From an uncultured Bacilli bacterium (GTDB taxonomy: Bacteria; Bacillota_I; Bacilli_A; RF39; UBA660): a stretch of DNA of 64,000 nucleotides. Positions 14,713 to 41,871 of this stretch are shown here, piece after piece. Every line of letters starts with the position of its first letter. Position 1 is the stretch's first letter. The translations under genes and the position numbers were made by a program. The notes under the pieces were generated by a model, which was given only the letters and a program-made list of their open reading frames with translations, was not told the origin of the DNA and did not search any database. The stretch spans positions 5,955 through 69,954 of the forward strand of contig CANQWB010000003.1 in assembly GCA_947627435.1 (NCBI GenBank). Direction: 5' to 3'.

Positions 14713-14770
14713 GCAATTATACAGAAGTAATAGTAGCTGAGTTTATCTTGTTAATGTGGTGTAATAAAAA

Positions 14771-17276: not shown

Positions 17277-18575
17277 GCAATTTATTTGTCAAAGTTGATA
17301 TTTATAATTGGTAGTTATAAATATCTTTTTTTATTAATATTTTAATAATGAATCATTAAGTATAACATCATCAGGTTTAATATAATAACAATTAAGTTTT
17401 TTAAGAATATATTCATCACATAGAAATAACATTGCCTCATAAGGTGATTTACCATTTAAAGAATCACGGCATAAACTATTAATGTTATTCATAAATAAAT
17501 CACAATCTTCTTGTGTAATATTTTTAAAAGAAGAACCTTTAGGTAAAATATAACGAATAAATTCATGATTTTTCTCTATGCCTCCTTTTTGCCAAGAAGC
17601 TGAAGGATCACAAAAGAAAAGATGAGTAACATAATCGCCAGTTTCATGAATACATTCAATATTATTGACATCAAAAAATTCATGACCATTATCAGTAAGA
17701 ATAATTGGAAATAGTTTTTTATAATCTTCTTCAGGTATAAAAGATTGAAGAATACCAAATATTCTAGTTACTTCTTCAGTAGTTTGAGATTCCAATTTAA
17801 ATATAAGCATAAAATTAGATTTTCTCCAAAAAAGAGTAAGAAAACAATCTTCTTCAGTTTGGAGACCTTCAACAGTATCCATTTCAACAATGTTTAAATA
17901 AGGATTTTTAGATATATAATCTAAAAAGTCAGAATATTTTCTGTTAATTAAAATTTCTCTTTCTTTTCGAGTTCTTCTATTAGAATTGTTTTTTCTTTTT
18001 TTATATTTAACAATTCTAGGAAAATCCAAAGGTCCAAATTCAAAAACACCATTGTTTACATAATTATAAAAAGATGGTTTAGAAAAATCTAAAATGTCTG
18101 GATGATTAATATATAAATGATTTATAGTTTGACCTTTTTTAATAAGAGGAGTAAGAATCTTATTAATTTGAAATATTTCTTCTGGTGTTAAATTAATACC
18201 TTTTCGAGCTTCACTTTTAACTTCTTTATAAGAATCATTAGCTCTTCTGGCATAGTAAGTATATCTTTCTTTTCTACAACCACTTCTTGATTTACAACCA
18301 TTACAAACATAAGGTGAACGTTTTAATCTCTCACAAGATAAATCTCTATCATAATTATTATTTTTATAATTATTAAAATTACTTGGTTGAGAAAAGATTT
18401 TGTTTCGATCAATTTCTCTTAAAATGGAAGAATGAGATCTGTTAATTTCTTTAGCAATCTGATTAATAGATTTATTATCATTTAATCCGTCTTCAATATT
18501 TTTTCTATCTTCATAAGATAAATGACAATAATTTGTCATAGTATATAATACCTCCTTTAATGACAAATAAATTGC
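17277..18575 (-). mobile_element. IS30-family insertion sequence
   Basis: 15-bp terminal inverted repeats: GCAATTTATTTGTCA at 17277-17291 and TGACAAATAAATTGC at 18561-18575. They enclose a single transposase gene. Confidence 0.8.
17334..18539 (-). CDS. IS30-family transposase
   Basis: N-terminal HTH (LSYEDRKNIEDGL...SINQIAKEINRSHSSILREI) and a DDE core. The likely start is ATG 18539 (MTNYCHLSY), after the RBS AAAGGAGG. Confidence 0.9.
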   Translation of the reverse strand: MTNYCHLSYEDRKNIEDGLNDNKSINQIAKEINRSHSSILREIDRNKIFSQPSNFNNYKNNNYDRDLSCERLKRSPYVCNGCKSRSGCRKERYTYYARRANDSYKEVKSEARKGINLTPEEIFQINKILTPLIKKGQTINHLYINHPDILDFSKPSFYNYVNNGVFEFGPLDFPRIVKYKKRKNNSNRRTRKEREILINRKYSDFLDYISKNPYLNIVEMDTVEGLQTEEDCFLTLFWRKSNFMLIFKLESQTTEEVTRIFGILQSFIPEEDYKKLFPIILTDNGHEFFDVNNIECIHETGDYVTHLFFCDPSASWQKGGIEKNHEFIRYILPKGSSFKNITQEDCDLFMNNINSLCRDSLNGKSPYEAMLFLCDEYILKKLNCYYIKPDDVILNDSLLKY

Positions 18576-18701
18576 TTAGAAAGTATTATACTTGTTTATA
18601 AATCTTATTGCACAACTTTTGTGCACTTCTTTTTTTAAATTACACTATATAAAAAGTGTGATTAATAATGAGTAGAATAATGGCGTTATATTGTATTTTT
18701 A

Positions 18702-18710
18702 TGGTACAAT
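18702..18710 (+). promoter_or_regulatory. Extended -10 element upstream of recombinase 2
   Basis: TGgTACAAT, 48 nt upstream of the TTG start. Confidence 0.4.
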
Positions 18711-18757
18711 ATAATTGGCTTTAATTTGTTATACAAAAAAGAAAGGAGTAGAAAAAC

Positions 18758-20347
18758 TTGTATAACACTTTAAAAAATGCGCCAGAGTTTTACAAAGCAG
18801 GAATATATATAAGATTATCTGAAGCTGATGAAGGAAAAACTTACGAATCAGATAGTGAGAGTGTCCTTAATCAAAGAAATATGCTAATGAATTTTGTAAA
18901 AGAAAAGGGTTTTATCTTTGTAGGAGAATATGTTGATGATGGTTATTCTGGAACTAATTTTGAACGACCAGGATTTTCAAAAATGATTGAAGATATAAAA
19001 AATAAAGTTATTAACTTAGTTATCGTAAAAGATTTATCTAGACTTGGAAGAGATCATATTATGACCGGTTATTATGTTGAAAATTTCTTCCCTGAAAATG
19101 GAATAAGATTTATTTCTATGCAAGAAGGTTATGATAATGCAGTTAACCAAGCTAGTAATGATTCTTCAACTTTTATATTTGCTTGTAATGATTATTATAG
19201 TAAACAAAACTCTATAAAAATTCGTAATGTCTTAAATGATAAAAGAAGAAATGGTAAGTTTATAGGTAGTGCTCCGAGTTATGGGTATTTAAGAGATCCT
19301 GATGATAAGGGACACTTAATACCAGATCCAGAGTATGCACCGATTGTTAAAAAAATATTTGATATGGCCTATGAAGGTGTTGGATTATCTGCCATAACAA
19401 CTTATCTAAACGAAAGTAAAATTAAAACTCCAAGTAGTCTTAAAAGAAAAAATCCCCATGCTAAAAATAAATATAATCCTATATGGACTATATCATCTGT
19501 TAAAAAGATTTTAAAAAATCAAATGTATGTTGGTGATATGGTACAAAGTGTTCAAACGAAGGTATCTTATAAATCAAAAAAGAAAAAGACACTTCCAAAA
19601 GGTAATTGGGATATTGTTAAAAATACTCATGAACCAATAGTAGATAGAGTTATATTTGACCATGTACAAGATAATGTCAAAAGAACAAATTATACAGCAA
19701 ATACAAAGAGAGAAAAAAGACTATTTGAAAACTTATTATATTGCAAAGAATGTGGTAATATGCTTACGATTACTTATAAAAAGAAACAAGATTATTGGAC
19801 AATTAATTGTAATAGATATTCAAGAGATCCTAAAAGAAGAATGTGTGAGCCACATTTTATACCTTATGATAAGTTAGAGAATGCTTTATTAGATACAATT
19901 AAAAAGACTTGTAAACAATATTTAAAAGCTATTAATGTATCTGATATTGCAAATGAAATTAATAATAAGAAAAAGAATAATTTTAAGACACAAGAAAAAA
20001 TAAAAGAGTTAGAATCAAAAGAAAAAGAATATCTTAATAAATTAGATACACTTTATGAAGATAAATTTAAAGGATTAGTATCAGAAGAAATGTATAAAAG
20101 AATTGCTAATGATACTGAAGTTTTACTAACTAAATTAAGAAAAGAAATAAATAAATTGAAGGATGATAACAAGGTTATAAAAAACAAAACTGATGATATA
20201 AAACAATATGAAGAAAAGATTAAATCTTTAATTAATATTGAAAATCCTACAAGAGAACTAATGCAAACTATCATTGATAAAATAGTTATAGACAAAGATA
20301 AAAATATTGAAATAATTTACAAATTTAGCGTATTAAATAATATTTAA
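18758..20347 (+). CDS. Large serine recombinase (module B), paralogue of 8241-9899
   Basis: Same motif set (YIRLSEAD, DDGYSG, VKDLSRLGRD, CKECGNML...NCNRY). By eye about two thirds identical to recombinase 1 over the N-terminal 350 aa. Confidence 0.9.
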   Translation: MYNTLKNAPEFYKAGIYIRLSEADEGKTYESDSESVLNQRNMLMNFVKEKGFIFVGEYVDDGYSGTNFERPGFSKMIEDIKNKVINLVIVKDLSRLGRDHIMTGYYVENFFPENGIRFISMQEGYDNAVNQASNDSSTFIFACNDYYSKQNSIKIRNVLNDKRRNGKFIGSAPSYGYLRDPDDKGHLIPDPEYAPIVKKIFDMAYEGVGLSAITTYLNESKIKTPSSLKRKNPHAKNKYNPIWTISSVKKILKNQMYVGDMVQSVQTKVSYKSKKKKTLPKGNWDIVKNTHEPIVDRVIFDHVQDNVKRTNYTANTKREKRLFENLLYCKECGNMLTITYKKKQDYWTINCNRYSRDPKRRMCEPHFIPYDKLENALLDTIKKTCKQYLKAINVSDIANEINNKKKNNFKTQEKIKELESKEKEYLNKLDTLYEDKFKGLVSEEMYKRIANDTEVLLTKLRKEINKLKDDNKVIKNKTDDIKQYEEKIKSLINIENPTRELMQTIIDKIVIDKDKNIEIIYKFSVLNNI

Positions 20348-20350
20348 TTA

Positions 20351-20374
20351 ACTTTGCTCTATTTAAGAGCAAAG
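20351..20374 (+). terminator. Perfect hairpin after recombinase 2 (terminator or recombination-site candidate)
   Basis: ACTTTGCTC tatttaa GAGCAAAGT. There is no strong T-run. Confidence 0.35.
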
Positions 20375-20458
20375 TATACATAGTAAAAGATAAACTATTA
20401 TAAAAAATACTGAAACAAGAACGATTGTTTTGTATAATGGTAGTAAAGGAGGCAATGG

Positions 20459-21286
20459 ATGAATACTTTAGAAAAATATACTGACAAAACTTTTAACGAT
20501 ATTAAACACATTGATGATTATGGAAATGAATATTGGGAAGCACGAGAATTAATGCCATTATTAGAATATAGTAAATGGGAAAATTTTCATAAGGTTATTA
20601 AACGAGCAATGATTGCTTGTGAAACTAGTAATAATAATACTAACGATCACTTTCCTGAGTTCAGGAAACCGATAGTAGGTGGTAAAGGTAACATTCAAAA
20701 AGTTATAGATTATCATTTATCAAGGTATGCTTGTTATTTAATAGTTCAAAATGCAAATCCTAGAAAAAGATCAGTAGCTTTAGGTCAAACTTATTTTGCT
20801 GTTCAAACTAGAAAGCAAGAGATTACTGAATTAGAATATTCGAAATTATCAGAAGATGAAAAAAGATTATATACTAGAATTCTGGTTAATAATAAAAATA
20901 AATATTTGTTTAAAACTGCAAAAGAAGCAGGTGTAGAAAATTTTGGCAAATTTAATAATTACGGATATAAAGGGCTTTATAATGGCGAAACTGCAAAACA
21001 AATAGCAAAACGTAAAAATATAAAGGAAAATGAAGATATTCTTGATTATATGGGGAGTGAAGAATTAGGTGCAAATTTATTCCGTATTACTCAAACAGAA
21101 GCTAAATTAAAAAAGGATAATATAAGTAATGAAGATGATGCTTGTATAACTCATTACAACGTTGGGAAAACGGTTAGAAAAGCAATCGAAGAACTTGGAG
21201 GTAATATGCCTGAAACGCTACCTACCCCAGAAAAATCCATAAAAGAACTTGAAATCGAAGAATTAAAAAAAATAGAATCTAAATAA
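20459..21286 (+). CDS. DNA damage-inducible protein D (DinD)-like
   Basis: WEARELMPLLEYSKWENFHKVIKRA...LSRYACYLIVQNANPRK...GQTYFAVQTRKQE matches the DinD family signature as I recall it. Confidence 0.7.
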   Translation: MNTLEKYTDKTFNDIKHIDDYGNEYWEARELMPLLEYSKWENFHKVIKRAMIACETSNNNTNDHFPEFRKPIVGGKGNIQKVIDYHLSRYACYLIVQNANPRKRSVALGQTYFAVQTRKQEITELEYSKLSEDEKRLYTRILVNNKNKYLFKTAKEAGVENFGKFNNYGYKGLYNGETAKQIAKRKNIKENEDILDYMGSEELGANLFRITQTEAKLKKDNISNEDDACITHYNVGKTVRKAIEELGGNMPETLPTPEKSIKELEIEELKKIESK

Positions 21287-21308
21287 AAATAATTAAGGAG
21301 TGGTATTT

Positions 21309-21905
21309 ATGGCAAAAGTATTAACATTTGAAGTTGGAATTAATAGTTTAGAAAATAAAATATGGAGAAAAATTGAAATTACGGATCGAAGAACTATAGC
21401 AGATTTAGCATATACAATTCTTGCTAGTTTTGACTCTTTAGCGTATCATTTATATTATATCAAGTATAAAAATAAAGTATATGATTGTTGGGTTTGTATA
21501 GAAGATGATCATAGTGAAATTCCACCTATTAATGCCGTTATAACTAAATTAAGCAGTCTTGGCTTAAAAGAAAATGATACTATGGAAATGGACTATGATA
21601 CTGGTTCGACAACAACGTTTAAAATCAAATATTTAGGAGCAAGAGACTTAGAAAATGGGAAGGGCAATCATTATCCATATATAATTGATGGCGCTGGCAG
21701 AGGTATGCTCGATGATTTATGTGATTTTGAATTAAAAGAAATTGTTGATGATATTGATCAAAAAGGATATTCGGAACATTATTTTACTCCTGGTTATCAA
21801 AGAACTATAAAATATGATTATAGAAAATATAATATTAAAAATGATAATGCATTGTTAAAAGGTCTAATTTTAGAAATAAAAAATGGATATGAAGTTGGTG
21901 ATTAA
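21309..21905 (+). CDS. pRiA4b ORF-3-like protein
   Basis: N-terminus KVLTFEVGINSLENKIWRKIEI...TIADLAYTILASFDS is typical of this family. AAGGAG RBS before ATG 21309. Confidence 0.6.
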   Translation: MAKVLTFEVGINSLENKIWRKIEITDRRTIADLAYTILASFDSLAYHLYYIKYKNKVYDCWVCIEDDHSEIPPINAVITKLSSLGLKENDTMEMDYDTGSTTTFKIKYLGARDLENGKGNHYPYIIDGAGRGMLDDLCDFELKEIVDDIDQKGYSEHYFTPGYQRTIKYDYRKYNIKNDNALLKGLILEIKNGYEVGD

Positions 21906-22220
21906 ATGGCAGAGATAACATCAATAAGAGAAATGATTGTAAATAAAGAAAAAATCAAGATAGAATTTACTTATTTAGCACAGTATAATAGAAATAAAAA
22001 ATATTTTAATAATTTGGATTTTGATACTGCAGAATGGGAAAGTGATGATACAATTGAATTTTTAAATGATCATTTAAAAGAATATTTAGATCATGAACAT
22101 TTAAATTTTACAAGAGTTGCAGAAAAGTTTTTTGAAATAAACGAAATAGTTGATAATATAAAATTTATTGATAAGTATGGCTATTTTAAAGTATATCGTA
22201 AAGAATTTGAAAATAGATAA
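21906..22220 (+). CDS. Hypothetical protein
   Basis: The start abuts the previous stop. 104 aa. Confidence 0.4.
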   Translation: MAEITSIREMIVNKEKIKIEFTYLAQYNRNKKYFNNLDFDTAEWESDDTIEFLNDHLKEYLDHEHLNFTRVAEKFFEINEIVDNIKFIDKYGYFKVYRKEFENR

Positions 22221-22237
22221 TTAGGATGTGAAAATAT

Positions 22238-22474
22238 ATGGAAAAGAATATTGAAGAATTAACGTTGTTACTTATGTATTTAACCTCTTGGGACAATGAT
22301 AATCCCTTAGAAGAAAATTATAAAGAATGTTGGAAAGGTTATTCGTTTGATGTTATTAATGAATTAACTGACAAGGGTTATTTGTTTCCTTCAAAATATA
22401 AAAATAAGTCAGTTACATTTACAAAAGAAGGAATGGAATATGCCGAAAATTTATTGAAGAAGTATCTTAAATGA
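22238..22474 (+). CDS. Hypothetical small protein (DUF6429-like, tentative)
   Basis: LTLLLMYLTSW...CWKGYSFDVINELTDKGYL...KSVTFTKEG. Confidence 0.4.
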   Translation: MEKNIEELTLLLMYLTSWDNDNPLEENYKECWKGYSFDVINELTDKGYLFPSKYKNKSVTFTKEGMEYAENLLKKYLK

Positions 22475-22755
22475 GTATAAAATTATAAAACATTACACAT
22501 TGACTATCGCCAGGTACTACAGTTGTGTAATTATGCCATAGATTATAGTTATATCATATATCATATACCATATACCATATTTAAAAATGTTTAATTATAT
22601 AAATGAAAATAGTTTGTTCCATATTTATATATAAATGGATTTAGAATAGTCAATAAAAGTGAATATTCAATTTGAAAATTATCTAAATATATGATATACT
22701 ATACGTATAAGTTGAAGACTTTTTAGTCCATTTAGAATAAGGAGAAGGATTGCTC

Positions 22756-22833
22756 ATGATTATCCTATATATTTTAGGAACCATTTATGCCGTGTTTGCC
22801 GCATTCTATGATGTATCCAAAAAACACAAATAA
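22756..22833 (+). CDS. Possible 25-aa hydrophobic peptide
   Basis: AAGGAGAAGG RBS. Translation MIILYILGTIYAVFAAFYDVSKKHK. It ends in the terminator hairpin. Confidence 0.3.
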   Translation: MIILYILGTIYAVFAAFYDVSKKHK

Positions 22834-22858
22834 AAACAGTTATAAAAACTGTTTTTTT
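22832..22858. terminator. Bidirectional intrinsic terminator
   Basis: AAAAACAGT tataaaa ACTGTTTTT, flanked by an A-run and a T-run, between convergent ORFs. Confidence 0.6.
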
Positions 22859-22863
22859 GTATA

Positions 22864-23124
22864 TTAACGATAGTATGGTCCATAATAAGGATATGGATAA
22901 TAGTTATTGTAATAAGGTCTAGGATAGAATGCAGGTGCGAGTAATCCTCCTGTTACACCACCTAAAATAAATGGCCCTAAAAAACCCCCAACCAAACGAT
23001 CATTATTGGAATTCACTTGTCCATTCCAAGTAGAATTCATTGAACTAGATTGTGAATTGGTTGTAGGGTATGGATAATTAGAAGATGGCACGAAACTAGA
23101 CATATTTCCATAATTAGAATACAT
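22864..23124 (-). CDS. Small Tyr/Pro/Gly/Asn-rich protein (possible spore-coat-type protein)
   Basis: AGGAGG RBS. The C-terminus reads FYPRPYYNNYYPYPYYGPYYR. Confidence 0.5.
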   Translation of the reverse strand: MYSNYGNMSSFVPSSNYPYPTTNSQSSSMNSTWNGQVNSNNDRLVGGFLGPFILGGVTGGLLAPAFYPRPYYNNYYPYPYYGPYYR

Positions 23125-32020: not shown

Positions 32021-32398
32021 GGGGCTGCTTTGGTTTCGACGGATATATTCCGCTTCCAGTTGCAAGTGGGAGGTACACCTTACGTACAAATAAAAATAAA
32101 CGCAAACAAATTAAAAAATACATTCGCTACTTTATTCACTAAGAATACTGTAGCCTTCGCCTAATCGGATTTAGGAAATGTGCTTTCTTTTATCCTTTTC
32201 CTACGGGGATTTAAGAAGGCTCGATTAAGTAGGATATGTTGTTATTTTGCTCAGTGATAACAATGAATTTTATGAGCTTACTAATATATGGGTTGTTGGT
32301 TACTAACATATATTAGAAAATAAAATAACCAACTAAACTTGTAGAAGCTGTTGGTAGGGTATTTTCGGACAGGAGTTCAATTCTCCTCAGCTCCACCA
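32021..32398 (+). ncRNA. ssrA: tmRNA (SsrA)
   Basis: The 5' GGGGCUG pairs with the 3' CAGCUCC (including the G3:U pair), followed by ACCA. T-arm GGAGTTCAATTCTCC. Tag ORF 32102-32164 reads GCA AAC...GCC TTC GCC TAA = ANKLKNTFATLFTKNTVAFA. It follows smpB. Confidence 0.9.
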
Positions 32399-32519
32399 GA
32401 TTGATAGGAAACTCGGACTTTGATTGTTCGAGTTTTAAAATGTTTTAATTTATGTTAAAATATTTATAGATTTTAATTGATATGCTTGTCAATTTAGAAA
32501 ACACACTTGCAAATTGACA
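32394..32519 (+). repeat. Repeat unit copy 1 (native ssrA 3' flank)
   Basis: CACCAGATTGATAGGAAACTCGGACTT plus hairpin, extended -10 TGtTAAAAT (32453-32461), and the 33-nt motif TGTCAATTTAGAAAACACACTTGCAAATTGACA (32487-32519). Confidence 0.85.
32409..32436 (+). terminator. ssrA terminator hairpin
   Basis: AAACTCGGAC tttgatt GTTCGAGTTT, then T and AAAA. The hairpin is retained, with G:U-compatible changes, in the downstream repeat copies. Confidence 0.5.
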
Positions 32520-32559
32520 TAGTAAATTAATATTAATTTAAAATATGGAGGTTAAAAAT

Positions 32560-33264
32560 ATGACAAAATTAAACAAACCTATTATTGGGATTGTTAGTAA
32601 ACCATCTATAGAAACTGATATGTGGCATTATATGGAAATTGTTGATAATATAAGATATGTCCTTGTGCAAAATGGTGCTTTAGTTATTGGATTATTACCA
32701 ACAGATAAAAAACTAGATTTTAAAATTGATGAAGAAATAGACAGTTGTATCTTGACTAATGAGGAAAAAGAAGATTTAGAAAATATACTTTCAAAATTAG
32801 ATGGCGTAGTATTAGAGGGTGGATTAGTAAGCAATCAATATGAAGAAGAAATAGCTAGAATTTGCATTAAAAGAGATATTCCAATTTTAGGTATATGTTC
32901 AGGATTTAATAATTTAATTAGAGCATTAGGTGGCTATGTTCGTATGGATTCTAATATTTTTCATAATCAATTTGGTTCAAAAGTTGCACATGAAGTAAAT
33001 TTAATCGAAAATTCAAAATTGTTTAATATTTTAAAAAGCAAAAAATTAATTGTTAATAGTATACATACATTTACGGCAATTGAAGAAGAAATAAAAGAAT
33101 ATAAAGTTGTAGCAAAATGTCCATTAGATAACACAGTTGAAGCAATAGAACTTGAAAATAAAAGATTTGTAATGGGTATAAAATGGCATCCTGAATTAAT
33201 GGAATCTATGAATCTAATATTTGAAAAGTTTGTCGAGGAGTGTGGTAAAAAGTACGATATATAA
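32560..33264 (+). CDS. Class I glutamine amidotransferase-like / peptidase C26 (gamma-glutamyl hydrolase type)
   Basis: Nucleophile elbow ILGICSGFNNL and GIKWHPE (His-Glu). GGAGG RBS before ATG 32560. Confidence 0.75.
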   Translation: MTKLNKPIIGIVSKPSIETDMWHYMEIVDNIRYVLVQNGALVIGLLPTDKKLDFKIDEEIDSCILTNEEKEDLENILSKLDGVVLEGGLVSNQYEEEIARICIKRDIPILGICSGFNNLIRALGGYVRMDSNIFHNQFGSKVAHEVNLIENSKLFNILKSKKLIVNSIHTFTAIEEEIKEYKVVAKCPLDNTVEAIELENKRFVMGIKWHPELMESMNLIFEKFVEECGKKYDI

Positions 33265-33289
33265 GGGATATAAAATAAAAGTTAGATGT

Positions 33290-33420
33290 ATTGATAGGAA
33301 ACTCGAACTTTCTATGTTATTATAGAAATTTGAGTTTTATATTGTCTAAAATTTTGATATAATATTGATATAATAATAAATTGAGTTTGTCAATTTAGAA
33401 AACACACTTGCATATTGTCA
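33290..33420 (+). repeat. Repeat unit copy 2
   Basis: ATTGATAGGAAACTCGAACTT plus a long hairpin, extended -10 TGaTATAAT (33355-33363), and the 33-nt motif at 33388-33420 (30/33 identical to copy 1). Confidence 0.8.
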
Positions 33421-33456
33421 TAGATAATTTATATGTAATACGAGGAGATAATAGAT

Positions 33457-34368
33457 ATGAAAGAAGAAATACTCAATTTTTATAAAAGAACAAGTTTATA
33501 CACAGATTTAGGACTATACAAGAACTTTGCTATAAATTTACCAAACGATATAAAAGAATTATGTTTATTACAAAGAAACCAAATTATTCATCCCTTTGAT
33601 TTATATGATGAAAAAATGAGAAATGATGCCAATTCTTTTTATGGCGATATGACTAAAATTAGCAAAACTAGTTTAAACTATGAAAATGATTTATTCCCTA
33701 CGGCTCAATCTATGATAGCAGAACTTTTAAGAAGAAATGAGAATTATTCTAAAGATAGGAAAATAGAGGATAAAATTCATGTATGTTGTAGAGAGCAGGC
33801 AATTTTACTTACAAGTATTCTAAAAGCAAAAGGATTTTCTGCACGTGTTCGTAGTGGATTTACAACTTACTGCAATATCTCAAATAAAGAAGCCGGCGAT
33901 CATTGGATATGTGAATATTATAATGATAAAGAAAAAAGATGGGTTCTAGTAGATGCAGATATGTACTTTGATGATGATACATTATTAGAATACCATATTG
34001 ATTTTAATTTATTAGATGTACCAAGAAATAAATTTATATTTGGGGCAGAAGCTTATTTGGGATTAAGAAATGGAAAATATAGCGATAATGAGATATATTA
34101 TACATCATCTCCAAAAACTATAGGTATTAAAGCAGCTTTACATGGCTTATTTTATGATTTTCATTCTCTTATGAATGATGAAATAATTTTTCTGCATTTA
34201 CCTAAGTATATTTTAGATAAAGATTTAAATTTAACCGAAGATGAATTAAAAGAGTTAGATGATTTAGCTACTTTAATGTTAGAACCAGATATTAACTTTT
34301 TTAAACTAAGAGAAATTTGGAATAACAATATAAAGTATAGAATAATGTCAGGTGGTTTAAACGTCTAA
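33457..34368 (+). CDS. Transglutaminase-like cysteine protease-fold protein
   Basis: Cys-His-Asp arrangement CREQAILLTSILKAKG...GDHWICEYY...RWVLVDAD. Confidence 0.7.
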   Translation: MKEEILNFYKRTSLYTDLGLYKNFAINLPNDIKELCLLQRNQIIHPFDLYDEKMRNDANSFYGDMTKISKTSLNYENDLFPTAQSMIAELLRRNENYSKDRKIEDKIHVCCREQAILLTSILKAKGFSARVRSGFTTYCNISNKEAGDHWICEYYNDKEKRWVLVDADMYFDDDTLLEYHIDFNLLDVPRNKFIFGAEAYLGLRNGKYSDNEIYYTSSPKTIGIKAALHGLFYDFHSLMNDEIIFLHLPKYILDKDLNLTEDELKELDDLATLMLEPDINFFKLREIWNNNIKYRIMSGGLNV

Positions 34369-34380
34369 CTTTATTAAAAA

Positions 34381-34440
34381 GTTGTTGTACTTCTTCCATT
34401 AGGGCACCATTGGAAATCTGTTCGAACTATTCGAACTTTT
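34381..34440 (+). repeat. Repeat unit copy 3 (degenerate; cassette-end motif plus diverged core)
   Basis: GTTGTTGTACTTCTTCCATTAGGGCACCA, followed by TTGGAAATCTGTTCGAACTATTCGAACTTTT. No promoter or leader part. Confidence 0.6.
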
Positions 34441-34499
34441 GATATAGGAATCAATCGAAAGATTGGTTTTTTTGTTAGAAAAAATCATAGTCGGAAAGG

Positions 34500-34784
34500 T
34501 TGGTGTCTATGGTAAATATAATTAAAAAAGAAATTGATATGGAAGAATCTTTAAAGAAAAGAATTGAGATTATTTGTGATTTTTGTAATACTATTCCAAT
34601 ATTTATTAATGGTAGTATTCGTAAAATTGATAAGACAAACTTATCTTATATCGAACCTCATAGAATAATCATTAATAACAATATGTTTCTTGCCTTTAAC
34701 TATTCAAATGAAATTTATATCAATAACTTAAGTAAAAAGATTAAAATATCAGAACTTGAAAACTATATTAAGACTATGAACTAA
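34500..34784 (+). CDS. Hypothetical small protein
   Basis: ORF with a GGAAAGG RBS-like sequence. No motif recognised. Confidence 0.3.
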   Translation: MVSMVNIIKKEIDMEESLKKRIEIICDFCNTIPIFINGSIRKIDKTNLSYIEPHRIIINNNMFLAFNYSNEIYINNLSKKIKISELENYIKTMN

Positions 34785-34904
34785 TACTTTATACCACGAA
34801 CAAAACATAGACAAAATAAAAATTTTGTTGTATTATGTAAATGATTTAAAAATACTTACCGAGAAGTAAAAGTATTAGTTAGTAGTACCTTTACTTCTCT
34901 TTTT

Positions 34905-35793
34905 TTGAAAATAAGGGATACCAAAGATATGGAATTTAAAAAACGAATGACAAATGTTTTTAAAGAACAAGTTAACGATTTAGAAATACTTGTTCCAAAT
35001 TTTAAAATAGCAAGTGCAATTATTCATTATGATGAAACAAGTCCGCACCTTCATATTGTTGGTGTACCTGTTAAAATTGGTGGTAAAAATGGTATGAGTA
35101 AACAAGTTGGAAAAACTGAAGTATTTTACAAAAGAATCACTTCGTAAATTGCAAGATAAAATGAGAATTTTATGTATTGAAGAATTTAATAAAGAATATG
35201 GCTTAAATGATAAATTAAAAACGAAAAAGAAAGGTAGAAATAAAGATTATTATATATCTGAAATGGATAATTATGAACAAATGCAAGAACAACTAGAAAA
35301 AAATCAAGAAAAGTTAGAAATAGCAAGTAAAAAAGCCATAGAACTTGATAACTCTTCTAAAGAAGTAAAAGATATTATAAATGATTTAAAAACTACTCTA
35401 ACTTCTAAAGAAAAATATGTGTTAAAAAAAGAAGACAAAGATAAATTAGTATCTTATATTAATTCAGTTAGTAAAACAAATGAAGAATTTAAACAAATTC
35501 AAACTTTATCAGTTACATTAAGTAATGTTGATGAGGAATTAAAAGAAGAAAACTATTCTTTAAAATCTAGTATTGAACATTTGATAAATAAATTTACTAA
35601 TCTAATTAAACTTATTAAAAATAAGATATTCTCTAAACATGATACAAGAGAAAAATATATGGAGTTTTCAAGAGATTTATACACTCATGGTATCATCGAA
35701 GATAAAGAGATAAGAGATATTAAAGATAATTATGATTATTGTCAAAATCGTGACAATGGCAGAAATAAAGATGATTTTGAGATAGAAATATAG
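34905..35793 (+). pseudogene. MOBV (Pre/Mob) relaxase remnant: N-terminally truncated and frameshifted
   Basis: Motif III HYDETSPHLHIVGVPV is present. The N-terminal catalytic region is missing. The frame switches between 35107 and 35147. The C-terminus is a coiled coil. Confidence 0.65.
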
Positions 35794-35848
35794 TAAAAAA
35801 GTTGATTTTATAGTATAATACTTATCAACTTGATTTGGAGTGTTTAAG

Positions 35849-37315
35849 ATGAAGTTATATATACAGATGGTTAAATTATTATTTGATAAATTTATTCTTC
35901 GAAAAAATAATGGAATTGTGATAAAAGAATTTTCTGAAAAGATGGGAGTTGTTTATATTAAATTAGCTCAAATATTAGCAACTCAAAACTATGGTAATTT
36001 ATTTACTGAAGAAGATAGAAAAATGTTATCTAGCATTTGTGATGACTGTAACCCCATTACTTATGATGAAATCGAAGAAATATTAAAAAAGGAATATAGG
36101 ACAGATTTAAACAATATATTTAGTTTTATTGAAAAAGAACCAATTGGTTCGGCATCAGTATCACAAGTTCATAGAGCAATATTAGCAACTGGTGAGGAAG
36201 TTGCAATAAAAATTAAAAGAAAGGATATTACTAATAATATTGATGATGATATAAAAAGAATTAGAGCAATAATTCATAGATTTGGTAAAGTAATAAAGTT
36301 TAGTAATTTTACGGGTGGAGATCATGCACTAGATTTATATTTGGAATGGATAAAACAAGAAACTGATTTTAGCCATGAAAGAGAAAATATTAAAACATAT
36401 CAAAACTTTGCAAACAGTGTTAATGGTAAAGTAAGCAACACAAAATTGATTAAAGTTCCTAAATTGTATGAGCAATACTGTACTGATAATGTAATTGTTA
36501 TGGAATTTATTAAAACTAAAACTGTTAACAAAACAGAATTAACAGAAGAAAATAAAAAAAGAATTATTATTGCAATAAATAGTTATATAAGGTCTAGTTT
36601 TTGGGCTATGTTTAATGACAAACAAATTGTTTTTCACGGAGATCCACATAGTGGCAATATTTGTATAGATGAAAATGGTAATATTTGTTTCTTAGATATG
36701 GGACTTTTATGTGTTTTAAGTGAAAGTGATGCTAAATTATGTAGAAAATTCTTTTTAACTGCATATTCTGGAAATTATGAAAAATTATATGATATGTTAG
36801 TTATTTATGGTGATATGAGTGAAGAAAAAAAAGCATCATTTAAAGAAGAATGCAAAAAATATTGTAGAAATGTAAAAGATAAAGATGTAACTTTTTATTT
36901 TATTGATATGATTAATGTTTGTTTAAACTATGAATTTGTTCCACCTGATTTTTTATTTAGTATGGCAAAAGCATTTATTTGTTTAAATGGAATCAGTAAT
37001 TTTACTGAAAATAAATGCACTGCAAAAGAATTATTACAAGAGCAAACAATTGAATTTATGGTAAAAAGAAGTTTAAAAGATTGTAAAGATATCGTCATTG
37101 ATAGTTTATCTATTGCTCCAAAAGCATTAGAAAATACTATACAATATGGATTAGTTAATACAGTTGCTAAAGCATCAACTAGTAGTGAGCTAAGAGAAAA
37201 TCTAAGAAGGTCTTTAGAAAATTTAAAGGAAATGCTAGATTTAATAAAATCATCTTATAGTGAAGATGTACAAAGTCAACCAGAGCAACTAAATCAAAGA
37301 ACAAAACATTTATAG
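35849..37315 (+). CDS. ABC1/UbiB (AarF) atypical kinase family protein
   Basis: IGSASVSQVHRAILATGEEVAIKIKR, HGDPHSGNI, FLDMG. GGAG RBS before ATG 35849. Confidence 0.8.
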   Translation: MKLYIQMVKLLFDKFILRKNNGIVIKEFSEKMGVVYIKLAQILATQNYGNLFTEEDRKMLSSICDDCNPITYDEIEEILKKEYRTDLNNIFSFIEKEPIGSASVSQVHRAILATGEEVAIKIKRKDITNNIDDDIKRIRAIIHRFGKVIKFSNFTGGDHALDLYLEWIKQETDFSHERENIKTYQNFANSVNGKVSNTKLIKVPKLYEQYCTDNVIVMEFIKTKTVNKTELTEENKKRIIIAINSYIRSSFWAMFNDKQIVFHGDPHSGNICIDENGNICFLDMGLLCVLSESDAKLCRKFFLTAYSGNYEKLYDMLVIYGDMSEEKKASFKEECKKYCRNVKDKDVTFYFIDMINVCLNYEFVPPDFLFSMAKAFICLNGISNFTENKCTAKELLQEQTIEFMVKRSLKDCKDIVIDSLSIAPKALENTIQYGLVNTVAKASTSSELRENLRRSLENLKEMLDLIKSSYSEDVQSQPEQLNQRTKHL

Positions 37316-37413
37316 AATAATTTATAATAAAGTAGCGTGAATGTGTTGCTACTTTTTCTTTTTTTTTGATAAACTATATTTAGTGATTGATTCATAAATC
37401 ACCTTTGGAAAAA

Positions 37414-37562
37414 GTTGCAGATAACTTTCTCAACCGCACCAGATTGATAGGAAACTCGGACTTATATTGTTCGAGTTTTAAATTGTTTAAAAGTATGTTA
37501 TAATAATCCATAAATTTAAATTGATTGTTTGTCAATTAAGAAAACATACTTGAATATTGACT
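37414..37562 (+). repeat. Repeat unit copy 4
   Basis: Diverged cassette-end motif GTTGCAGATAACTTTCTCAACCGCACCA, a perfect 27-nt copy of the ssrA core (37437-37463), the hairpin, TGtTATAAT (37496-37504), and the 33-nt motif at 37530-37562. Confidence 0.85.
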
Positions 37563-37594
37563 ATTTAATATGTGTATTAAATGTAGGTGATAAT

Positions 37595-38539
37595 ATGAGC
37601 CAAGACTTCAGTAAAATTATGCATTGGGCCATTAGAAGATGTGAAGGAAAAATAGATGTTGAGGATGGTGCACAAAAAAATTGCTTTTATCAAATTTATC
37701 CTTTTACAACAGAAAATATATCAGGTTATATTAATGAATTTGACCTAAAAGATAAATCATTATTAACTGTAGGATCTTCTGGAGATCAAGTCATAAATGC
37801 AATTTTATATGGATGCCAAGATATTTCTATATTAGATGTTAATCCATACACAAAATTTTATTATTATTTAAAAACAGCTAGTATATTAAATTTAGAATTA
37901 AAAGAATTCATGTTATTTTTAAGATTTAAAGATTATCCTAATGTTTTTAAGGATAATAAATTTGTTTTTAATAAAGAACTATATAATAAAGTAAAATTAA
38001 CATTACGCTTGCTTGATTATGAATCGTATCTATTTTGGGATGAATTATTTAATACTTTTAAACCTGTAGATATAAGAAATAATCTGTTTTCTTTAGATGA
38101 AGATAGAACCAATGTTATATTAGGTTGTAACCCATATTTAAAGAATTTAACATATTATGAAAAAACAAGAGATAAAATTCAAAAAATATTTCCTCATTTT
38201 ATAACCGGTGATTTGTTTAAAATAAATTTGATAAGAAATTATGATAATATTTGGTTGTCAAACATAGGAACATATTTACCTAGACATTTTGTGAAAATTA
38301 TGACTGATAAATTAGCAGAATCATTAACTCAAAATGGAAAACTTTTAATTAGTTATCTATATCAAACAACCGCAAATACAGAATACGAAGATGGTTGGTG
38401 TTTAATATATGATTTAGAAAAAACTTTTAATATTTTAAGAGAATATAATCCAAATTTGATATCTTTCATGGGAGTAGATGGATTAAAGTTTCAAGATTCG
38501 AATATAAAAGATTCTATATTAGTCTATAAAAAAAATTAA
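37595..38539 (+). CDS. DUF3419/BtaA-like putative SAM-binding protein
   Basis: LLTVGSSGDQVINAIL...ISILDVNPYTKFYYYLK resembles the Rossmann/SAM motif of that family. The likely start is ATG 37595; the ORF-track TTG at 37529 lies inside the repeat motif. Confidence 0.55.
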   Translation: MSQDFSKIMHWAIRRCEGKIDVEDGAQKNCFYQIYPFTTENISGYINEFDLKDKSLLTVGSSGDQVINAILYGCQDISILDVNPYTKFYYYLKTASILNLELKEFMLFLRFKDYPNVFKDNKFVFNKELYNKVKLTLRLLDYESYLFWDELFNTFKPVDIRNNLFSLDEDRTNVILGCNPYLKNLTYYEKTRDKIQKIFPHFITGDLFKINLIRNYDNIWLSNIGTYLPRHFVKIMTDKLAESLTQNGKLLISYLYQTTANTEYEDGWCLIYDLEKTFNILREYNPNLISFMGVDGLKFQDSNIKDSILVYKKN

Positions 38540-38545
38540 TAAATA

Positions 38546-38691
38546 GTTGTCGTACTTCTTCTTTTAGGGCACCAGATTGATTGATACTCGGACTATTATA
38601 GTTCGAGTTTTAATATGTTAGAATTTATGCTTTTTTTTATAAATTGAATTGATATGCATGTCAATTTAGAAAACACACTTGCATATTTTCA
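38546..38691 (+). repeat. Repeat unit copy 5
   Basis: GTTGTCGTACTTCTTCTTTTAGGGCACCAGATTGATTGATACTCGGACT, the hairpin, TGtTAGAAT (38616-38624), and the 33-nt motif at 38659-38691. Confidence 0.85.
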
Positions 38692-38788
38692 AACAATAGG
38701 TGTAGAATAATAATCGTTTTAGACTACATAAAATTATTTCAATTATTTAAGAAATATAGTATAATACGTCTATAAGGGAGGTTTTATA

Positions 38789-39715
38789 ATGTCAGAAATA
38801 GAAAAGTTAGATGATGAATTATTTAGAGCAATGCATGCATTGCCAAAAAGTGGGGATATATCTACGATATGGGAGCAAATCAAAAGTAGACCCGAAATAT
38901 TAAGAGAAGCTGTTAAAATTAAAAGAAATAAATGGAATAATGGAGATTTAGTTAATGGAATAACAATTTGCGCTGCAATGCTAATTGATTATGACAATGT
39001 TGATCAAGTAGCATACAATGAATTAATTCAGAATATTTATACAAATACAGATATTGCTAGGCTTACTATAGACGATGGCGATTCCTACTTATTAGCGAGT
39101 CTATGGAATAACAATCTCAAATTAACTGAAAAACAAAAAGCTTTTGCAGTGAATGAAGCAATGAATAGAATTGGGACTGTTAGATATGAAAATGCTATGA
39201 ATAATTATTCTAAAGAACTTGATGAAAAAGGGATTACAGATGATCAAATTATGTATACTGAATTTGGAGGTTCTATTCATCCTGTGGGTGCGAAAACAGG
39301 TAATATGTATATGGCAAGTATTTTTCATTCATTAAGTCCTGCTCAAGTTCATGGAGTTAATGATTTTGATATTAGATATTGGATACTCAAAAATCCTAAC
39401 TGGACTTTAGATGAAAAACAAAAATTGATCATGGATTTTTGGAATGATGACGAAGTTTATGATGAAACATTAGAACAATGGGACTGGAGCGTAGTCAATG
39501 ATAGTGCCAATTGTAAAGGTAAAGCAATGCCACCATTTGATAAATACCAAATGTTTGAATTTTCTTATGAAGAACTATTAAAATTCTATGGTGATAAAAA
39601 TACTACTGATAGAATCTGGAATGAAATACAATTTTGTAAACAGATGCATCAGTTAAGACCTCAACAATGGGCAAGAGAATTTTTTACACAAAAACAATTA
39701 GTTAAAGATATTTAA
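38789..39715 (+). CDS. Hypothetical protein (308 aa)
   Basis: GGGAGG RBS. No motif recognised. Confidence 0.5.
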   Translation: MSEIEKLDDELFRAMHALPKSGDISTIWEQIKSRPEILREAVKIKRNKWNNGDLVNGITICAAMLIDYDNVDQVAYNELIQNIYTNTDIARLTIDDGDSYLLASLWNNNLKLTEKQKAFAVNEAMNRIGTVRYENAMNNYSKELDEKGITDDQIMYTEFGGSIHPVGAKTGNMYMASIFHSLSPAQVHGVNDFDIRYWILKNPNWTLDEKQKLIMDFWNDDEVYDETLEQWDWSVVNDSANCKGKAMPPFDKYQMFEFSYEELLKFYGDKNTTDRIWNEIQFCKQMHQLRPQQWAREFFTQKQLVKDI

Positions 39716-39753
39716 AATTAAAAAAATAAAAAGCATCAAAAATATATTGTATT

Positions 39754-39779
39754 ATAGTTAGTAATTGATTACTAACTAT
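39754..39779 (+). terminator. Intrinsic terminator
   Basis: Perfect 12-bp stem ATAGTTAGTAAT tg ATTACTAACTAT, followed by TTTCTTTTG. Confidence 0.6.
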
Positions 39780-39795
39780 TTCTTTTGTCTGAAAA

Positions 39796-39850
39796 TTTGC
39801 CGTACTTCTTCCATAGGACACCAGTGGTGAATCTACTTGAACTTTTTTGA
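39796..39850 (+). repeat. Repeat unit copy 6 (degenerate terminal copy)
   Basis: TTTGCCGTACTTCTTCCATAGGACACCA, followed by GTGGTGAATCTACTTGAACTTTTTTG. No promoter or leader part. Confidence 0.6.
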
Positions 39851-40253
39851 GTATTGATATAAAAGATAACTTTTTAGGTTATTTTGATACACTTTTTAAA
39901 AACAAAATATATGTAAAATCATAAAGAAAAGATACGCGATTCGTATAATAGAAGTGAACAGTTAATTTGTTTATTTTCCCTCTTGAATGGCTGATTCTTC
40001 TAACATAAAAAATTGTGATTTATTTTTACGGAATTCCATAAAATTAGAATGAACAAAGTTGAATATTCATCATTTTTTAGGTCAAAAAATGAATTACTAG
40101 AACAAATGTAATAGGGATATATTTTAAAACAAATATATAATGCAGTTAAATAATAAAGATAATTGAATAATTGACAATGACTTGTCTTTTGTATTATGAA
40201 AAAAGATAGACTTGAAAGTATATATATGCTATCCTTATCATAAGGAGGACTAA

Positions 40254-40601
40254 ATGAAAAAAGAAATTAAAAATTTTGAAAAAATTGTAGGAATCGTTTT
40301 AATCGTACTTACTATGATTAGTTTAATCATTAATGCATTTATATATACCAATATGATTTATGATTGGACATATGATACAACAAATTTAAATAATATAGTA
40401 GTAAGTACACCATTTAATGTTATTATGTGGATAGACAACATTTTAATTTACGTATTTAGCTTGTTTTATATAATGAGTGCCATAGAATCTAAAAAAGATG
40501 TATTTGTCAAAATAAGTTTTTCTATTTTCAGCATAGTAACTAGTATTATTGCATCTAATTTTATCATCAATGGTGTAGCAAGTATATTTGGTATATTTTA
40601 A
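40254..40601 (+). CDS. Hypothetical integral membrane protein
   Basis: AGGAGG RBS and three to four hydrophobic segments. Confidence 0.5.
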
Positions 40602-40698
40602 AAATTCAAAAATCATTATTATTCTAGTAAAAAGAAAGACTTTTACAATAGTTGTAAAAGTCTTTTTTGCATATCTTAAAGTAGAAAGGAGAATCACT

Positions 40699-41871
40699 AT
40701 GTTTCCATGTAAAAATAATCCATGTGGTAAGTATACCAAAAAGGCATTAGATAAGATTGAACAAAGTGCTGCTTGTAAACCAGAAGGATTTTATATTCAA
40801 ACTGGAATCGTAGGTCCGACAGGTCCAACCGGTCCTATGGGGTTAGAAGGAATGCCAGGCCCTGAAGGAATACCAGGTGCAACAGGACCAACTGGGCCAC
40901 AAGGAGAAATAGGTCCTCAAGGGGAACCAGGCCCTTCCGCAACTATTATCATTGGTGATGTCATTACAGGTGTTTCAGAAGAAGATGCAACCATTGTAGA
41001 TACAGGTAGTGGCGATGAACATATTTTAAATTTTGTAATTCCACGTGGACCTACAGGTGAATCCGGTCCGACAGGACCAACTGGTCCTTCTGGAACAAGT
41101 GTTACAATTTTAGGTTCTTACGATGATGTTGGTCAACTAAATGCAGCGCATCCCACAGGAAATCCGGGAGATTCTTATTTGGTAGGCTCTGATTTATATG
41201 TATGGTCTCCTGAAACGAGGACATGGGAGGACGTTGGTGTGATTAGAGGGCCTCAAGGACTACCAGGACCGCAAGGCGAACAGGGTATTCCAGGATTACG
41301 TGGCCCACAAGGAGTACAAGGTATTCAAGGGTTAGAAGGACCACAAGGAGTACCAGGACCAACCGGCCCAACGGGACCAGCTGGACCTCAAGAAATTGGT
41401 ACAGTATACATTGTAACTTACAATAACAATGATCCAAATGGGTATGAAGTTTCTTCAAGTGAACGTTTACCGCTTTCTAGAGTTGCCATGGATAATACAC
41501 AATTATGTACGATAGATACGAGTATGCGTACGATGCAATTTGCCAAGGAAGGCGTATATCGTATAGATTTTATTGTATACGGATATAGAACAATCAGTGA
41601 TGCTTCACCAAATGATTTAATTTCTGTTGGTTTTAGAAGATTATACGATGGTACATTATATGCAGGTGCTAGTTGTTGGTATATGAACGAACAAAATAAA
41701 GCGATTGTAGGGCAAGGTATGTTTATTGTCGATAGTCCAGATAATGTATTTGAACTCGTAAATTTATCTCGACAATCCATTCGGTTAAATACACCAGATT
41801 TATCTTTGACTACTTCAGCATCCTACTTTGCAAATCCAGTTGTAACCATGTTGATTCAATATTTGGGATAA
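40699..41871 (+). CDS. Collagen-like triple-helix repeat protein (BclA-type exosporium/surface glycoprotein-like)
   Basis: Three G-X-Y blocks ([19 protein letters not shown]..., [38 protein letters not shown]...) plus a globular C-terminal domain. AGGAG RBS before ATG 40699. Locally much more GC-rich. Confidence 0.85.

Follow-up and report, generated by a model that had tools for sequence, protein, structure and literature searches.

Staphylococcal cassette chromosome elements (SCC and SCCmec) are driven by large serine recombinases (LSRs; CcrAB or CcrC) and stack as cassettes at the 3′ end of rlmH, which is kept active; units without ccr genes have the same short repeats. These elements are 20–60 kb long, use a CcrA/CcrB pair and have neither a relaxase nor an origin of transfer (oriT). 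In Dehalococcoides, tandem islands are found at ssrA, the gene for transfer-messenger RNA (tmRNA); they depend on a serine recombinase, about half of them lack the recombinase module, and they were likened to SCCmec (PMC3146451). For integrative mobilizable elements (IMEs) of Firmicutes, decay to elements bounded by attachment (att) sites and tandem accretion into a resident att site is an established scheme (PMC5704250). Here we analysed an array of short units behind the tmRNA gene of an uncultured Bacilli bacterium, within a stretch of 64,000 nucleotides (the window; GenBank assembly GCA_947627435.1, contig CANQWB010000003.1, positions 5,955–69,954 of the forward strand; coordinates below are those of the window unless another locus is named). 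We conclude that this array is most probably a tandem accretion of elements of one family, characterized by an LSR and a MobV-type relaxase, and that it comprises four minimal cassettes and one element from which the recombinase gene has been deleted. In uncultured gut Bacilli, the insertion sites of this family are exactly the CCA ends of tRNA genes of many types and of tmRNA genes.

The tmRNA gene of the window (32021–32398, + strand; ARAGORN; Rfam RF00023, 162.7 bits) lies downstream of genes for RNase R, SmpB and a clade-specific 272-aa open reading frame (ORF). Directly behind it are five units of ∼0.9, 1.1, 3.0, 1.1 and 1.25 kb (units 1–5), bounded by copies of one junction whose common core is CACCA, the last 5 nt of the tmRNA (32394–32398). 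A 27-mer, CACCAGATTGATAGGAAACTCGGACTT, has exact copies only at 32394 and 37437 (0 expected from shuffles), and these two copies extend to 133 nt at 80% identity. The diverged copies at 33290, 34405, 38570 and 39819 are all real: the first keeps the downstream part of the repeat without CACCAG, the second is CACCA followed by a variant left end that we named R2, and the last two are degenerate. To the left of each core lies a second repeat family that is not derived from tmRNA. Its type B form (AAAAGTTGTYGTACTTCTTCC..GGGCACCA) is found at 34377, 38542 and 39792, and its type A form (AAAAAGTTGCAGATAAC..CGCACCA, i.e. AAAAAGTTGCAGATAACTTTCTCAACCGCACCA) at 37410. Thus the five-unit array, the unit sizes and the junction copies proposed in a first-pass annotation of this DNA were confirmed, and so was its observation that only ∼5 nt of the RNA gene are common to the junctions, which is not the pattern of a classic tyrosine-integrase island.

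We then asked where else this junction occurs. A scan for ATTGATAGGAAACTCGRACTT in one genome per species gave at least 119 loci (loci on contigs of other genomes carry L-numbers below). Among the matches listed, all were metagenome-assembled genomes (MAGs) of uncultured gut Bacilli or ‘Tenericutes’, and many lay at contig ends; a scan of viral contigs gave five matches. The left-end motif stood directly after the encoded CCA of tRNA genes or tmRNA genes, or after modules ending in ..GCACCA. At 160 mapped junctions the left neighbour was a tRNA gene in 78 cases, a tmRNA gene in 31 and a right-end module in 50, and the tRNAs were of at least nine types (Leu, Thr, Arg, Gly, Phe, Cys, Ala, Lys and Met). 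CCA was encoded in 207/207 tRNA and tmRNA genes of the mapped loci. Where the left-end motif was missing, these genes were followed by an ordinary terminator or by the next tRNA gene. The many tRNA hosts, together with native trailers that lack the motif, indicate that it is brought by the element. The repeated 125–135 nt, which had been taken for the 3′ flank of ssrA, are therefore the elements' own left end, and the system is not specific to tmRNA as had been assumed. In species-representative loci retrieved through smpB, a sample unbiased for the motif, 16 of 46 tmRNA genes carried the left end.

Each left end in the window is more similar to a copy in another species (83–88%) than to its neighbours in the window (75–82%), which argues for independent arrivals rather than local duplications. 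It is thus very improbable that the repeats arose by local duplication of the regulatory region downstream of ssrA in front of co-regulated chromosomal genes, with nothing mobile involved. Such duplication would fit the common orientation of the units, their common promoter-like leader and the single fixed order seen in the available same-species contigs. However, it would not account for the same ends flanking unrelated genes at many tRNA loci in many species, for the linkage of these ends to LSR and MobV genes, or for right-end modules that are not derived from ssrA, and the window copies are nearer to foreign copies than to each other. We also considered R2 as the native tmRNA trailer and dropped the idea: the same 65 nt follow tRNA-Leu in L254 and two unrelated tmRNA genes, and R2 leads into the small91 and LSR genes described below.

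Two further observations concern the left ends. In L122 (11748–12760), L123 and L127 the tmRNA gene is followed by a third type of sequence (TGTGGTTATAAAACAAAC...) with a simple terminator; in L122 there follow a single gene and a module resembling a right end (..GTCAGGTCCA), to which a normal cassette is joined, so the left-end family is wider than the two types that we tracked. In L300 (Mycoplasma sp. CAG:472) an R-like terminator and promoter (ATTAAATACTTTACTCGAACTTTTTAGTTCGAGTTTTA...TTATGTTATAAT) stand downstream of tRNA-Leu, directly before a gene that in the sister species (compare L293–L295) follows a plain native terminator; this leader may be the stump of an element left end that now serves a chromosomal gene.

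To find the genes that recur in the elements, we clustered all ORFs of the loci and counted same-strand genes behind the junctions. The commonest were a small protein of 91–107 aa (small91), an LSR of 600–650 aa with Resolvase and Recombinase domains, and a relaxase of 410–460 aa that passes the MobV model NF041497 (106.9 bits versus a cut-off of 100). Against the NCBIfam models the LSR reaches 138 bits for CcrB (3.6e-40) and 97 bits for CcrC, where the cut-off is 900 in both cases, and it also resembles XisF far under the cut-off. Its CcrB score being so far under the cut-off, the family LSR is not a Ccr protein. In L124 the order is tmRNA, left end, small91, LSR, MobV, a palindromic motif (the O motif, see below), cargo and a type B right end; in L150 it is tmRNA, R2-type left end, small91, LSR, MobV and cargo.

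LSR proteins that are 99.5–99.8% identical were found after tRNA-Leu (L056), tRNA-Ala (L116) and tmRNA (L111) in three genomes. A second set with 93–96% identity stood after tRNA-Thr, tRNA-Leu and tmRNA, and in a pair with 100% identity one LSR followed tRNA-Gly and the other a right-end module. One element lineage thus uses many tRNA genes as well as tmRNA. In pairwise comparisons, element DNA was 99.6–99.7% identical over at least 2.3 kb, and where the elements lay behind different RNA genes the homology began at −4 counted from the terminal A, at CACCA. This fixes the left boundary and also accounts for the recurrence of no more than 5 nt of ssrA in the window.

The small91 protein is abundant (4,611 clusters at 90% identity in the protein database), and some members occur on more than 200 contigs. 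The 120 clusters listed had no Pfam domain and were all named ‘hypothetical protein’. We found no match to small91 in Pfam, NCBIfam or PADLOC, and the best PDB sequence had E = 0.43. The AlphaFold model is confident (pLDDT 87) and shows a beta sheet, a long helix at the N-terminal end and another helix at the C-terminal end; compared with PDB folds it gave no match (best E = 0.29). From its position we would guess that small91 is a directionality factor or a regulator.

Next, we compared unit 3 with its intact relatives, which were reached through small91 proteins that are 93–96% identical. The 94/91-aa ORF of unit 3 is small91, and its Mob_Pre fragments are a 5′-truncated, frameshifted mobV. 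One relative, L254, reads tRNA-Leu(CAA), R2, small91, LSR (652 aa), MobV (459 aa), a 101-aa ORF and a type A right end, beyond which come a left end, a second unit and a type B right end before the contig stops at CACCA. The other, L256, lies behind the tmRNA gene of another organism and reads R2, small91, LSR, MobV, a 198-aa cargo gene, a type A right end and the trailer. Both are 93–97% identical to the window at 34403–34915 and 34915–35547, and between these two blocks they carry 2,553 bp that are absent from the window: the whole LSR gene and ∼130 mob codons. The right end of unit 3 (37346–37441) is common to all three, and the cargo differs, being an ABC1 kinase in the window. Unit 3 is therefore a full element from which a single deletion of 2,553 bp removed the LSR gene together with the 5′ part of mob. 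The contigs of L254 and L256 come from the same ENA sample series as the window, which means that closely related intact recombinases circulate in the community. Unit ends with a CACCA core match the ends of intact elements, that is, the units are bounded by attL and attR at a specific target.

Within unit 3, the left end of R2 type with its terminator occupies 34410–34480, the small91 gene 34509–34784 (94-aa ORF, 91 aa from the ATG at 34509), the mobV pseudogene 34905–35793 (Mob_Pre fragment in two frames, separated by a frameshift), the ABC1 kinase gene 35840–37315 and the type A right end 37410–37441; the deletion scar lies at 34915/34916, and the whole decayed IME spans 34410–37441 (+ strand, as all features of the array). 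The truncated, frameshifted mobV is all that the unit has of relaxase or oriT sequence, and no O motif was found in it. The array had earlier been called integrase-less, with no integrase gene in or beside it. This stands for the array itself, but two LSR genes lie in the window 12 and 24 kb upstream, and the label does not suit the family, whose full members carry LSR and MobV and whose member in unit 3 lost its LSR by deletion.

The two upstream LSR genes (8241–9899 and 18758–20347) are 51% identical to each other and ∼27% identical to the family LSRs at tRNA ends. They are part of a region of accessory genes (7100–23000) with an AbiEi-like gene plus Fic (10783–12234), a Schlafen-group-3-like helicase (12770–14656), HTH_38 of IS30 type (17334–18566, − strand), Bro-N (20459–21286) and PRiA4_ORF3 (21300–21905), and it looks like separate islands with defence-type cargo.

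Can the crossover be placed? Right-end/left-end junctions contain outer inverted motifs, AAAAGTTGTAG and the reverse complement of AAAAGTTCGAG, ∼52 bp apart, and in 41 such junctions the best dyad centre was at −3.5, the dinucleotide just before CCA. When we compared the −4/−3 dinucleotide of the RNA gene with that of the unit's right end, the two were concordant in 21/21 delimited units, including two tRNA-Cys cases with CT instead of CA. This is the pattern expected of a serine recombinase with a 2-nt crossover, which would then lie at that position, and we infer that the family LSR is the enzyme. Symmetry of the T-loop was also considered as a determinant of attB. The best dyad centre of tRNA/left-end junctions is at −1.5, and the idea is unproven since TCGA is itself palindromic.

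Of the other recombination chemistries, single-strand HUH transposition (IS200/IS605-like or PATE-like), in which subterminal hairpins would guide insertion 3′ of ACCA, appears the least probable of all the explanations considered. Insertion does occur exactly 3′ of a 4–5-nt motif, the left end has a hairpin close by, and a palindrome (e.g. GTTGTAGATATCTACAAC), followed by ∼7 nt and CACCA, is found in many right ends of type A. Yet type B right ends have no palindrome, no TnpA- or TnpB-like gene was among the recurrent clusters behind junctions, where LSR and MobV recur instead, and the inverted repeat formed by the outer motifs AAAAGTTGTAG and AAAAGTTCGAG, ∼52 bp apart, is typical of the attP of a serine recombinase.

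Integrons consist of an IntI tyrosine recombinase, an attI site, a common Pc promoter and cassettes that are usually promoterless and carry folded attC sites. The units of the array resemble such cassettes in being small, mostly of one gene and in one orientation, in lying beside a fixed site and in having their recombinase encoded elsewhere, and the first-pass annotation had compared them with promoter-carrying cassettes of integron style. The likeness is functional only: IntI, attI and attC are missing and the cassettes have their own promoters. That the array is a true integron-like platform, or a tyrosine-integrase island array at tmRNA with its integrase outside the window, is hardly credible, even though short, mostly single-gene units of one orientation are bounded by repeats at a fixed site and tyrosine-integrase islands are common at ssrA (PMC3146451, as background). 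No IntI, Phage_integrase or other tyrosine recombinase was found by Pfam among the 20 main proteins encoded between 25.2 and 47.4 kb, nor among the recurrent junction clusters, where LSR, MobV and small91 recur. The array adjoins a tmRNA gene, and just 5 nt of it, CACCA, are repeated rather than a substantial 3′ portion; this homology boundary fits the minimal core of serine-recombinase type. Each unit brings its own terminator and promoter, and the junction repeat is a 21-nt half-site plus a terminator hairpin, not a folded attC-type palindrome, a comparison made with no attC model or IntegronFinder run.

We next turned to the single-gene units. When 17 left ends, taken from at least 12 species, were aligned, they showed one conserved layout of ∼135 nt. 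It opens with CACCA-G-ATTGATAGGAAACTCGRAC and a terminator hairpin, continues with the extended −10 promoter TTTTAA...TATGnTAnAAT and with AATTGA, has O at +91 to +109 and reaches a start codon at ∼+126 to +170. Targeted scans raised the number of cassette-type left ends to 61 in dozens of species, 32 of them after tRNA genes (Leu, Thr, Arg, Cys, Ala, Tyr, Phe and Met), 5 after tmRNA genes and 23 after right-end modules. A loose search for right ends gave mostly false positives; under a strict right-end rule ∼26 cassettes could be delimited, each of 0.65–1.5 kb with one ORF and a type B module at the end. Their cargo is unrelated between units (RibD_C, NUDIX, HD, DUF7768, C26 and many unknowns). 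Units 1, 2, 4 and 5 of the window are minimal, non-autonomous members of this widespread architecture. The earlier description of the units as discrete, recombinase-less and cassette-like, each with its own terminator, promoter and leader, was thus correct. Units 2, 4 and 5, and the block formed by units 1 and 2, have family-type sequences at both ends and contain cargo without a recombinase or relaxase gene, and by their sequence they appear to fit the definition of cis-mobilizable elements (CIMEs).

The left ends of the cassettes in the window follow the same layout. Unit 1 (32399–33289) has its left end at 32399–32533, with the half-site GATTGATAGGAAACTCGGACTT, a terminator hairpin at 32408–32436, an extended −10 promoter at 32434–32461 and an oriT-like O motif at 32486–32520; its right end is truncated to AAAAGTTAGATGT, without the CACCA core. 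Unit 2 (33290–34409) has its left end at 33290–33425 with the O motif at 33387, and a type B right end at 34377–34409 that ends in ..GTTGTTGTACTTCTTCCATTAGGGCACCA. In unit 4 (37442–38574) the left end spans 37442–37565, the promoter 37477–37504 and the type B right end 38542–38574, and the nick heptamer (see below) of the O motif at 37529 is mutated to GTATGTT. Unit 5 (38575–39823) has a degenerate left end (38575–38700; terminator 38586–38608, O motif at 38658) and a degenerate type B right end (39792–39823). After the last core comes a distal flank (39824–39890) of R2-like sequence plus a hairpin, GTGGTGAATCTACTTGAACTTTTTTGAG..., which may be what remains of the oldest element or else the trailer that tmRNA had originally; downstream of 39823 no other right-end module was found. 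An Rfam search at E ≤ 1 over 32300–40300 returned tmRNA only, so the leader is no known RNA family.

As to the cargo, Pfam profile searches supported the gene content given in the first-pass annotation: Peptidase_C26/GATase in unit 1 (32545–33264), a transglutaminase-like protein in unit 2 (33457–34368; the Transglut_core match is weak), a DUF3419-like protein in unit 4 (37595–38539; 26 bits, under the cut-off of 28.2) and a 308-aa protein of no Pfam family in unit 5 (38789–39715). PADLOC gave only weak matches, of the ABC1 kinase to PD-T4-6 and mad6, and no clear sign of a defence system in the cargo.

The O motif, TGTCAATTTAGAAAACACACTTGCAnATTGACA, is a 33-nt palindromic sequence ∼95 nt past the core, present at 32486, 33387, 37529 and 38658. 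In one group of full elements (e.g. L124, L020 and L026) it lies directly after mobV and before the cargo, whereas the conserved sequence that precedes it in a second group is another one. On its reverse strand, GTGTGTT is found at a fixed place in 58/62 distinct copies. The cleavage site is GTGTG/TT for MobM of pMV158 and GTGcG/TT for the related MobSag (PMC5090054). The minimal origin of pMV158 is the IR1 hairpin, which stands 8 nt before the nick and is embedded in three inverted repeats that overlap (PMC5863519). We found a perfect hairpin of at least 5 bp ending 8–11 nt upstream of the nick position in 45/62 O copies, compared with 17% of shuffles, and in 18 of these 45 it ends exactly 8 nt upstream. 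The arms have 28 different sequences (e.g. CATTGA/TCAATG, TAATGA/TCATTA and TATTGGC/GCCAATA), and the right arm also pairs with the downstream ATTGACA, which creates overlapping repeats around the nick. On the basis of the MobV heptamer and of the hairpin spacing with covarying arms, it is plausible that O is a MobV-type oriT. It would be like the pMV158-type MOBV1 oriT of MobM in its GTGTG/TT site, its upstream hairpin (8–11 nt away here) and its overlapping inverted repeats. Unlike that oriT, the family site lies downstream of mobV and upstream of the cargo, and it is also present on units without a relaxase gene.

Elements of R2 type have no O motif. In one of them, L256, the spacer between LSR and mob (7657–7845 of that locus) contains a different hairpin, CTAAGG-TGT-CCTTAG, and after it ..GCCTGTGTC..; this may be another kind of oriT, situated upstream of mob. 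In the window this region was removed by the deletion.

It may be asked whether the single-gene units ever moved on their own, or whether they are stumps left by deletions within full elements, never mobile alone, with O as the promoter-operator of the cargo instead of an oriT. Unit 3 shows that internal deletion occurs, and because full elements contain the promoter, O, cargo and right end as one module, a single deletion would yield a cassette. The decay of the window copies and the location of O between promoter and start codon, where an operator is expected, are also in line with such an origin. Nevertheless, we consider it unlikely: the left end is uniform at ∼135 nt and O keeps its spacing of +91 to +109 in 61 copies from dozens of species, where independent deletions would leave ragged joints; the cassettes mostly stand directly after tRNA genes and as sole occupants; and O agrees with MobV sites in the nick heptamer and in the distance between hairpin and nick, its arms covarying.

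Accretion of LSR/MobV-family elements remains our preferred explanation of the array, and several results weigh against it. The link between the LSR and the insertion site is one of association and anatomy. Pfam detected no recombinase gene in the array (32.4–39.9 kb), and no LSR of the element family is present in the 64-kb window. Alongside the 21 concordant units, two arrays disagree at position −4. A comparison at scpB–tRNA-Leu covered numerous empty sites, which had plain terminators, as well as numerous occupied ones; in the best species group the insertions had no recognisable right-end module and gave no tidy right junction, and for this reason we did not use them as boundary evidence. 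Single-sequence folding energies of O did not differ significantly from those of shuffles (best z = −1.9; three of the four window copies are near shuffle level), so the case for an oriT rests on the comparative hairpin and heptamer analysis. The array itself is worn. Junction 1 has lost its core (AAAAGTTAGATGT|ATTGATAGG), by which units 1 and 2 are fused, junctions 4 and 5 are degenerate, and the canonical upstream hairpin is gone from 4/4 O copies in the window. Finally, eight same-species contigs with identical SmpB are 100% identical to the window, a species-specific tmRNA pattern had 0 matches in JGI metagenomes, and neither an excised circle nor an empty site nor a strain variant of the array was found in the same-species contigs or the JGI metagenome scan.

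Junction 0 (tmRNA/left end) and junction 3 are intact, junction 2 is a type B end joined to R2, and the O heptamer is intact in units 1, 2 and 5, that is, in 3/4 window copies. The decay of the O sites (hairpins and one heptamer) makes the present-day mobility of the units doubtful, and the array looks like an old, decaying accretion that is largely fossil. Within the species, all contigs that could be found are identical to the window (three of them stop at 33414, inside a repeat). Between species there is variation: the sister species L122 and L123 have the distal flank in common and hold different units behind their tmRNA genes.

How, then, would such an array be built? In the model that we favour, a full element would be composed of a left end (half-site, replacement terminator and promoter), small91, LSR, MobV, a MobV-type oriT, cargo and a right end ..GCACCA. 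The LSR would recombine the attP of the circular element, in which right and left ends meet, with the last few bases of any tRNA or tmRNA gene that ends in N-CCA. The RNA gene would stay intact and be re-terminated by the incoming element, and since a CACCA-ended junction would be regenerated, further elements could stack. Units 1, 2, 4 and 5 would need LSR and relaxase in trans, and their mobility in this way is plausible. We offer a broader proposal tentatively, as possible but not one that we would favour at present: the LSR family may recognise the DNA of the generic tRNA-like 3′ end (T-arm, acceptor strand and N-CCA), so that every tRNA or tmRNA gene of these gut Bacilli with small genomes is a docking site, and it may have spawned units of 0.65–1.5 kb (attP, terminator, promoter, MobV oriT and one gene) that are integrated, excised and conjugatively mobilised entirely in trans and that stack, as a serine-recombinase counterpart of integron cassettes with an oriT.

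The array works like SCC arrays and the Dehalococcoides ssrA islands, and it is not an integron, a Ccr element or a tyrosine-integrase island. With SCC it has in common LSR-driven tandem stacking at the 3′ end of a conserved gene, recombinase-less units included; it differs in that the target is the end of an RNA gene instead of rlmH and that a single LSR, which is not Ccr, is involved. The Dehalococcoides islands (DsiB; McMurdie et al. 2011, PMC3146451) are likewise in tandem directly downstream of ssrA, with a CcrB-like LSR next to attL. Their module-less half was read as cis-mobilizable elements from accretion, and the islands were proposed to be mobilizable, not conjugative (PMC3146451). 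The first-pass annotation, which held that tmRNA islands normally carry a tyrosine integrase, missed this serine-recombinase precedent. Those islands are, however, several kb or more in size (∼7 kb of module plus cargo were amplified), with a six-gene module and no relaxase (PMC3146451), whereas here only CACCA is common, one element lineage uses many tRNA genes plus tmRNA, one-gene units measure 0.65–1.5 kb, and MobV occurs with an oriT-like site. The IME/CIME scheme (PMC5704250) is matched in the mobilizable element, which in that scheme has a MobV-type relaxase and a recombinase of the serine or tyrosine type, and likewise in decay and in accretion; unlike here, where the CCA ends of RNA genes are used, recently analysed serine-recombinase IMEs disrupt dispensable protein-coding genes (PMC5704250). 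The pdif/Xer modules of Acinetobacter plasmids are also small gene modules between recombination sites with a recombinase not encoded in the module (PMC12907356), but they are unconnected with tRNA genes and depend on dif-like sites and on the tyrosine recombinases XerC/D of the host. What distinguishes the present family is the 5-nt core at the CCA end, the many tRNA and tmRNA targets of one lineage, single-gene units with an oriT-like site, and the combination of LSR and MobV. In the literature we found no account of IMEs whose serine recombinase uses the CCA ends of many tRNA genes, and none of a uniform type of one-gene unit that retains an oriT, although coverage was incomplete and this is absence of evidence only.

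Just past the array lies a gene for a collagen-triple-helix-repeat protein of 427 aa (40588–41871). Its homologue in L030 (54%) is located upstream of a tRNA-Met junction, outside the element, as judged from coordinates. Between 39.9 and 44.9 kb there is no synteny with relatives; the conserved flank returns at EngB (44961). MAG contigs of the clade often stop on the CACCA/left-end junction or on a tRNA or tmRNA 3′ end, or no more than a few dozen bases away (L010, L013, L036, L042, L047, L061, L068, L120, L254, L262, L267, L275, L291 and others); in this clade, short-read assemblies are systematically interrupted at tRNA genes by the element repeats. Several low-GC contigs with Bacilli-type tRNA or tmRNA genes are titled ‘uncultured Muribaculaceae’ or filed under MAGs of Clostridia or Actinomycetes (L007, L029, L032, L071, L136 and others) and are probably mis-binned.

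The array of the window is thus a decaying pile of units and no new kind of integron, and the interest lies more in the element family, which is very common in animal and human gut metagenomes. An LSR lineage that targets any tRNA-like gene end would be unusual, and it could possibly serve as a tool with predictable, harmless landing sites. If the proposal is true, the single-gene units, which beside their gene keep only att ends, promoter and oriT, would rank with the smallest integrative mobilizable elements, and they would explain how small accessory enzymes are exchanged among uncultured gut Bacilli with reduced genomes.

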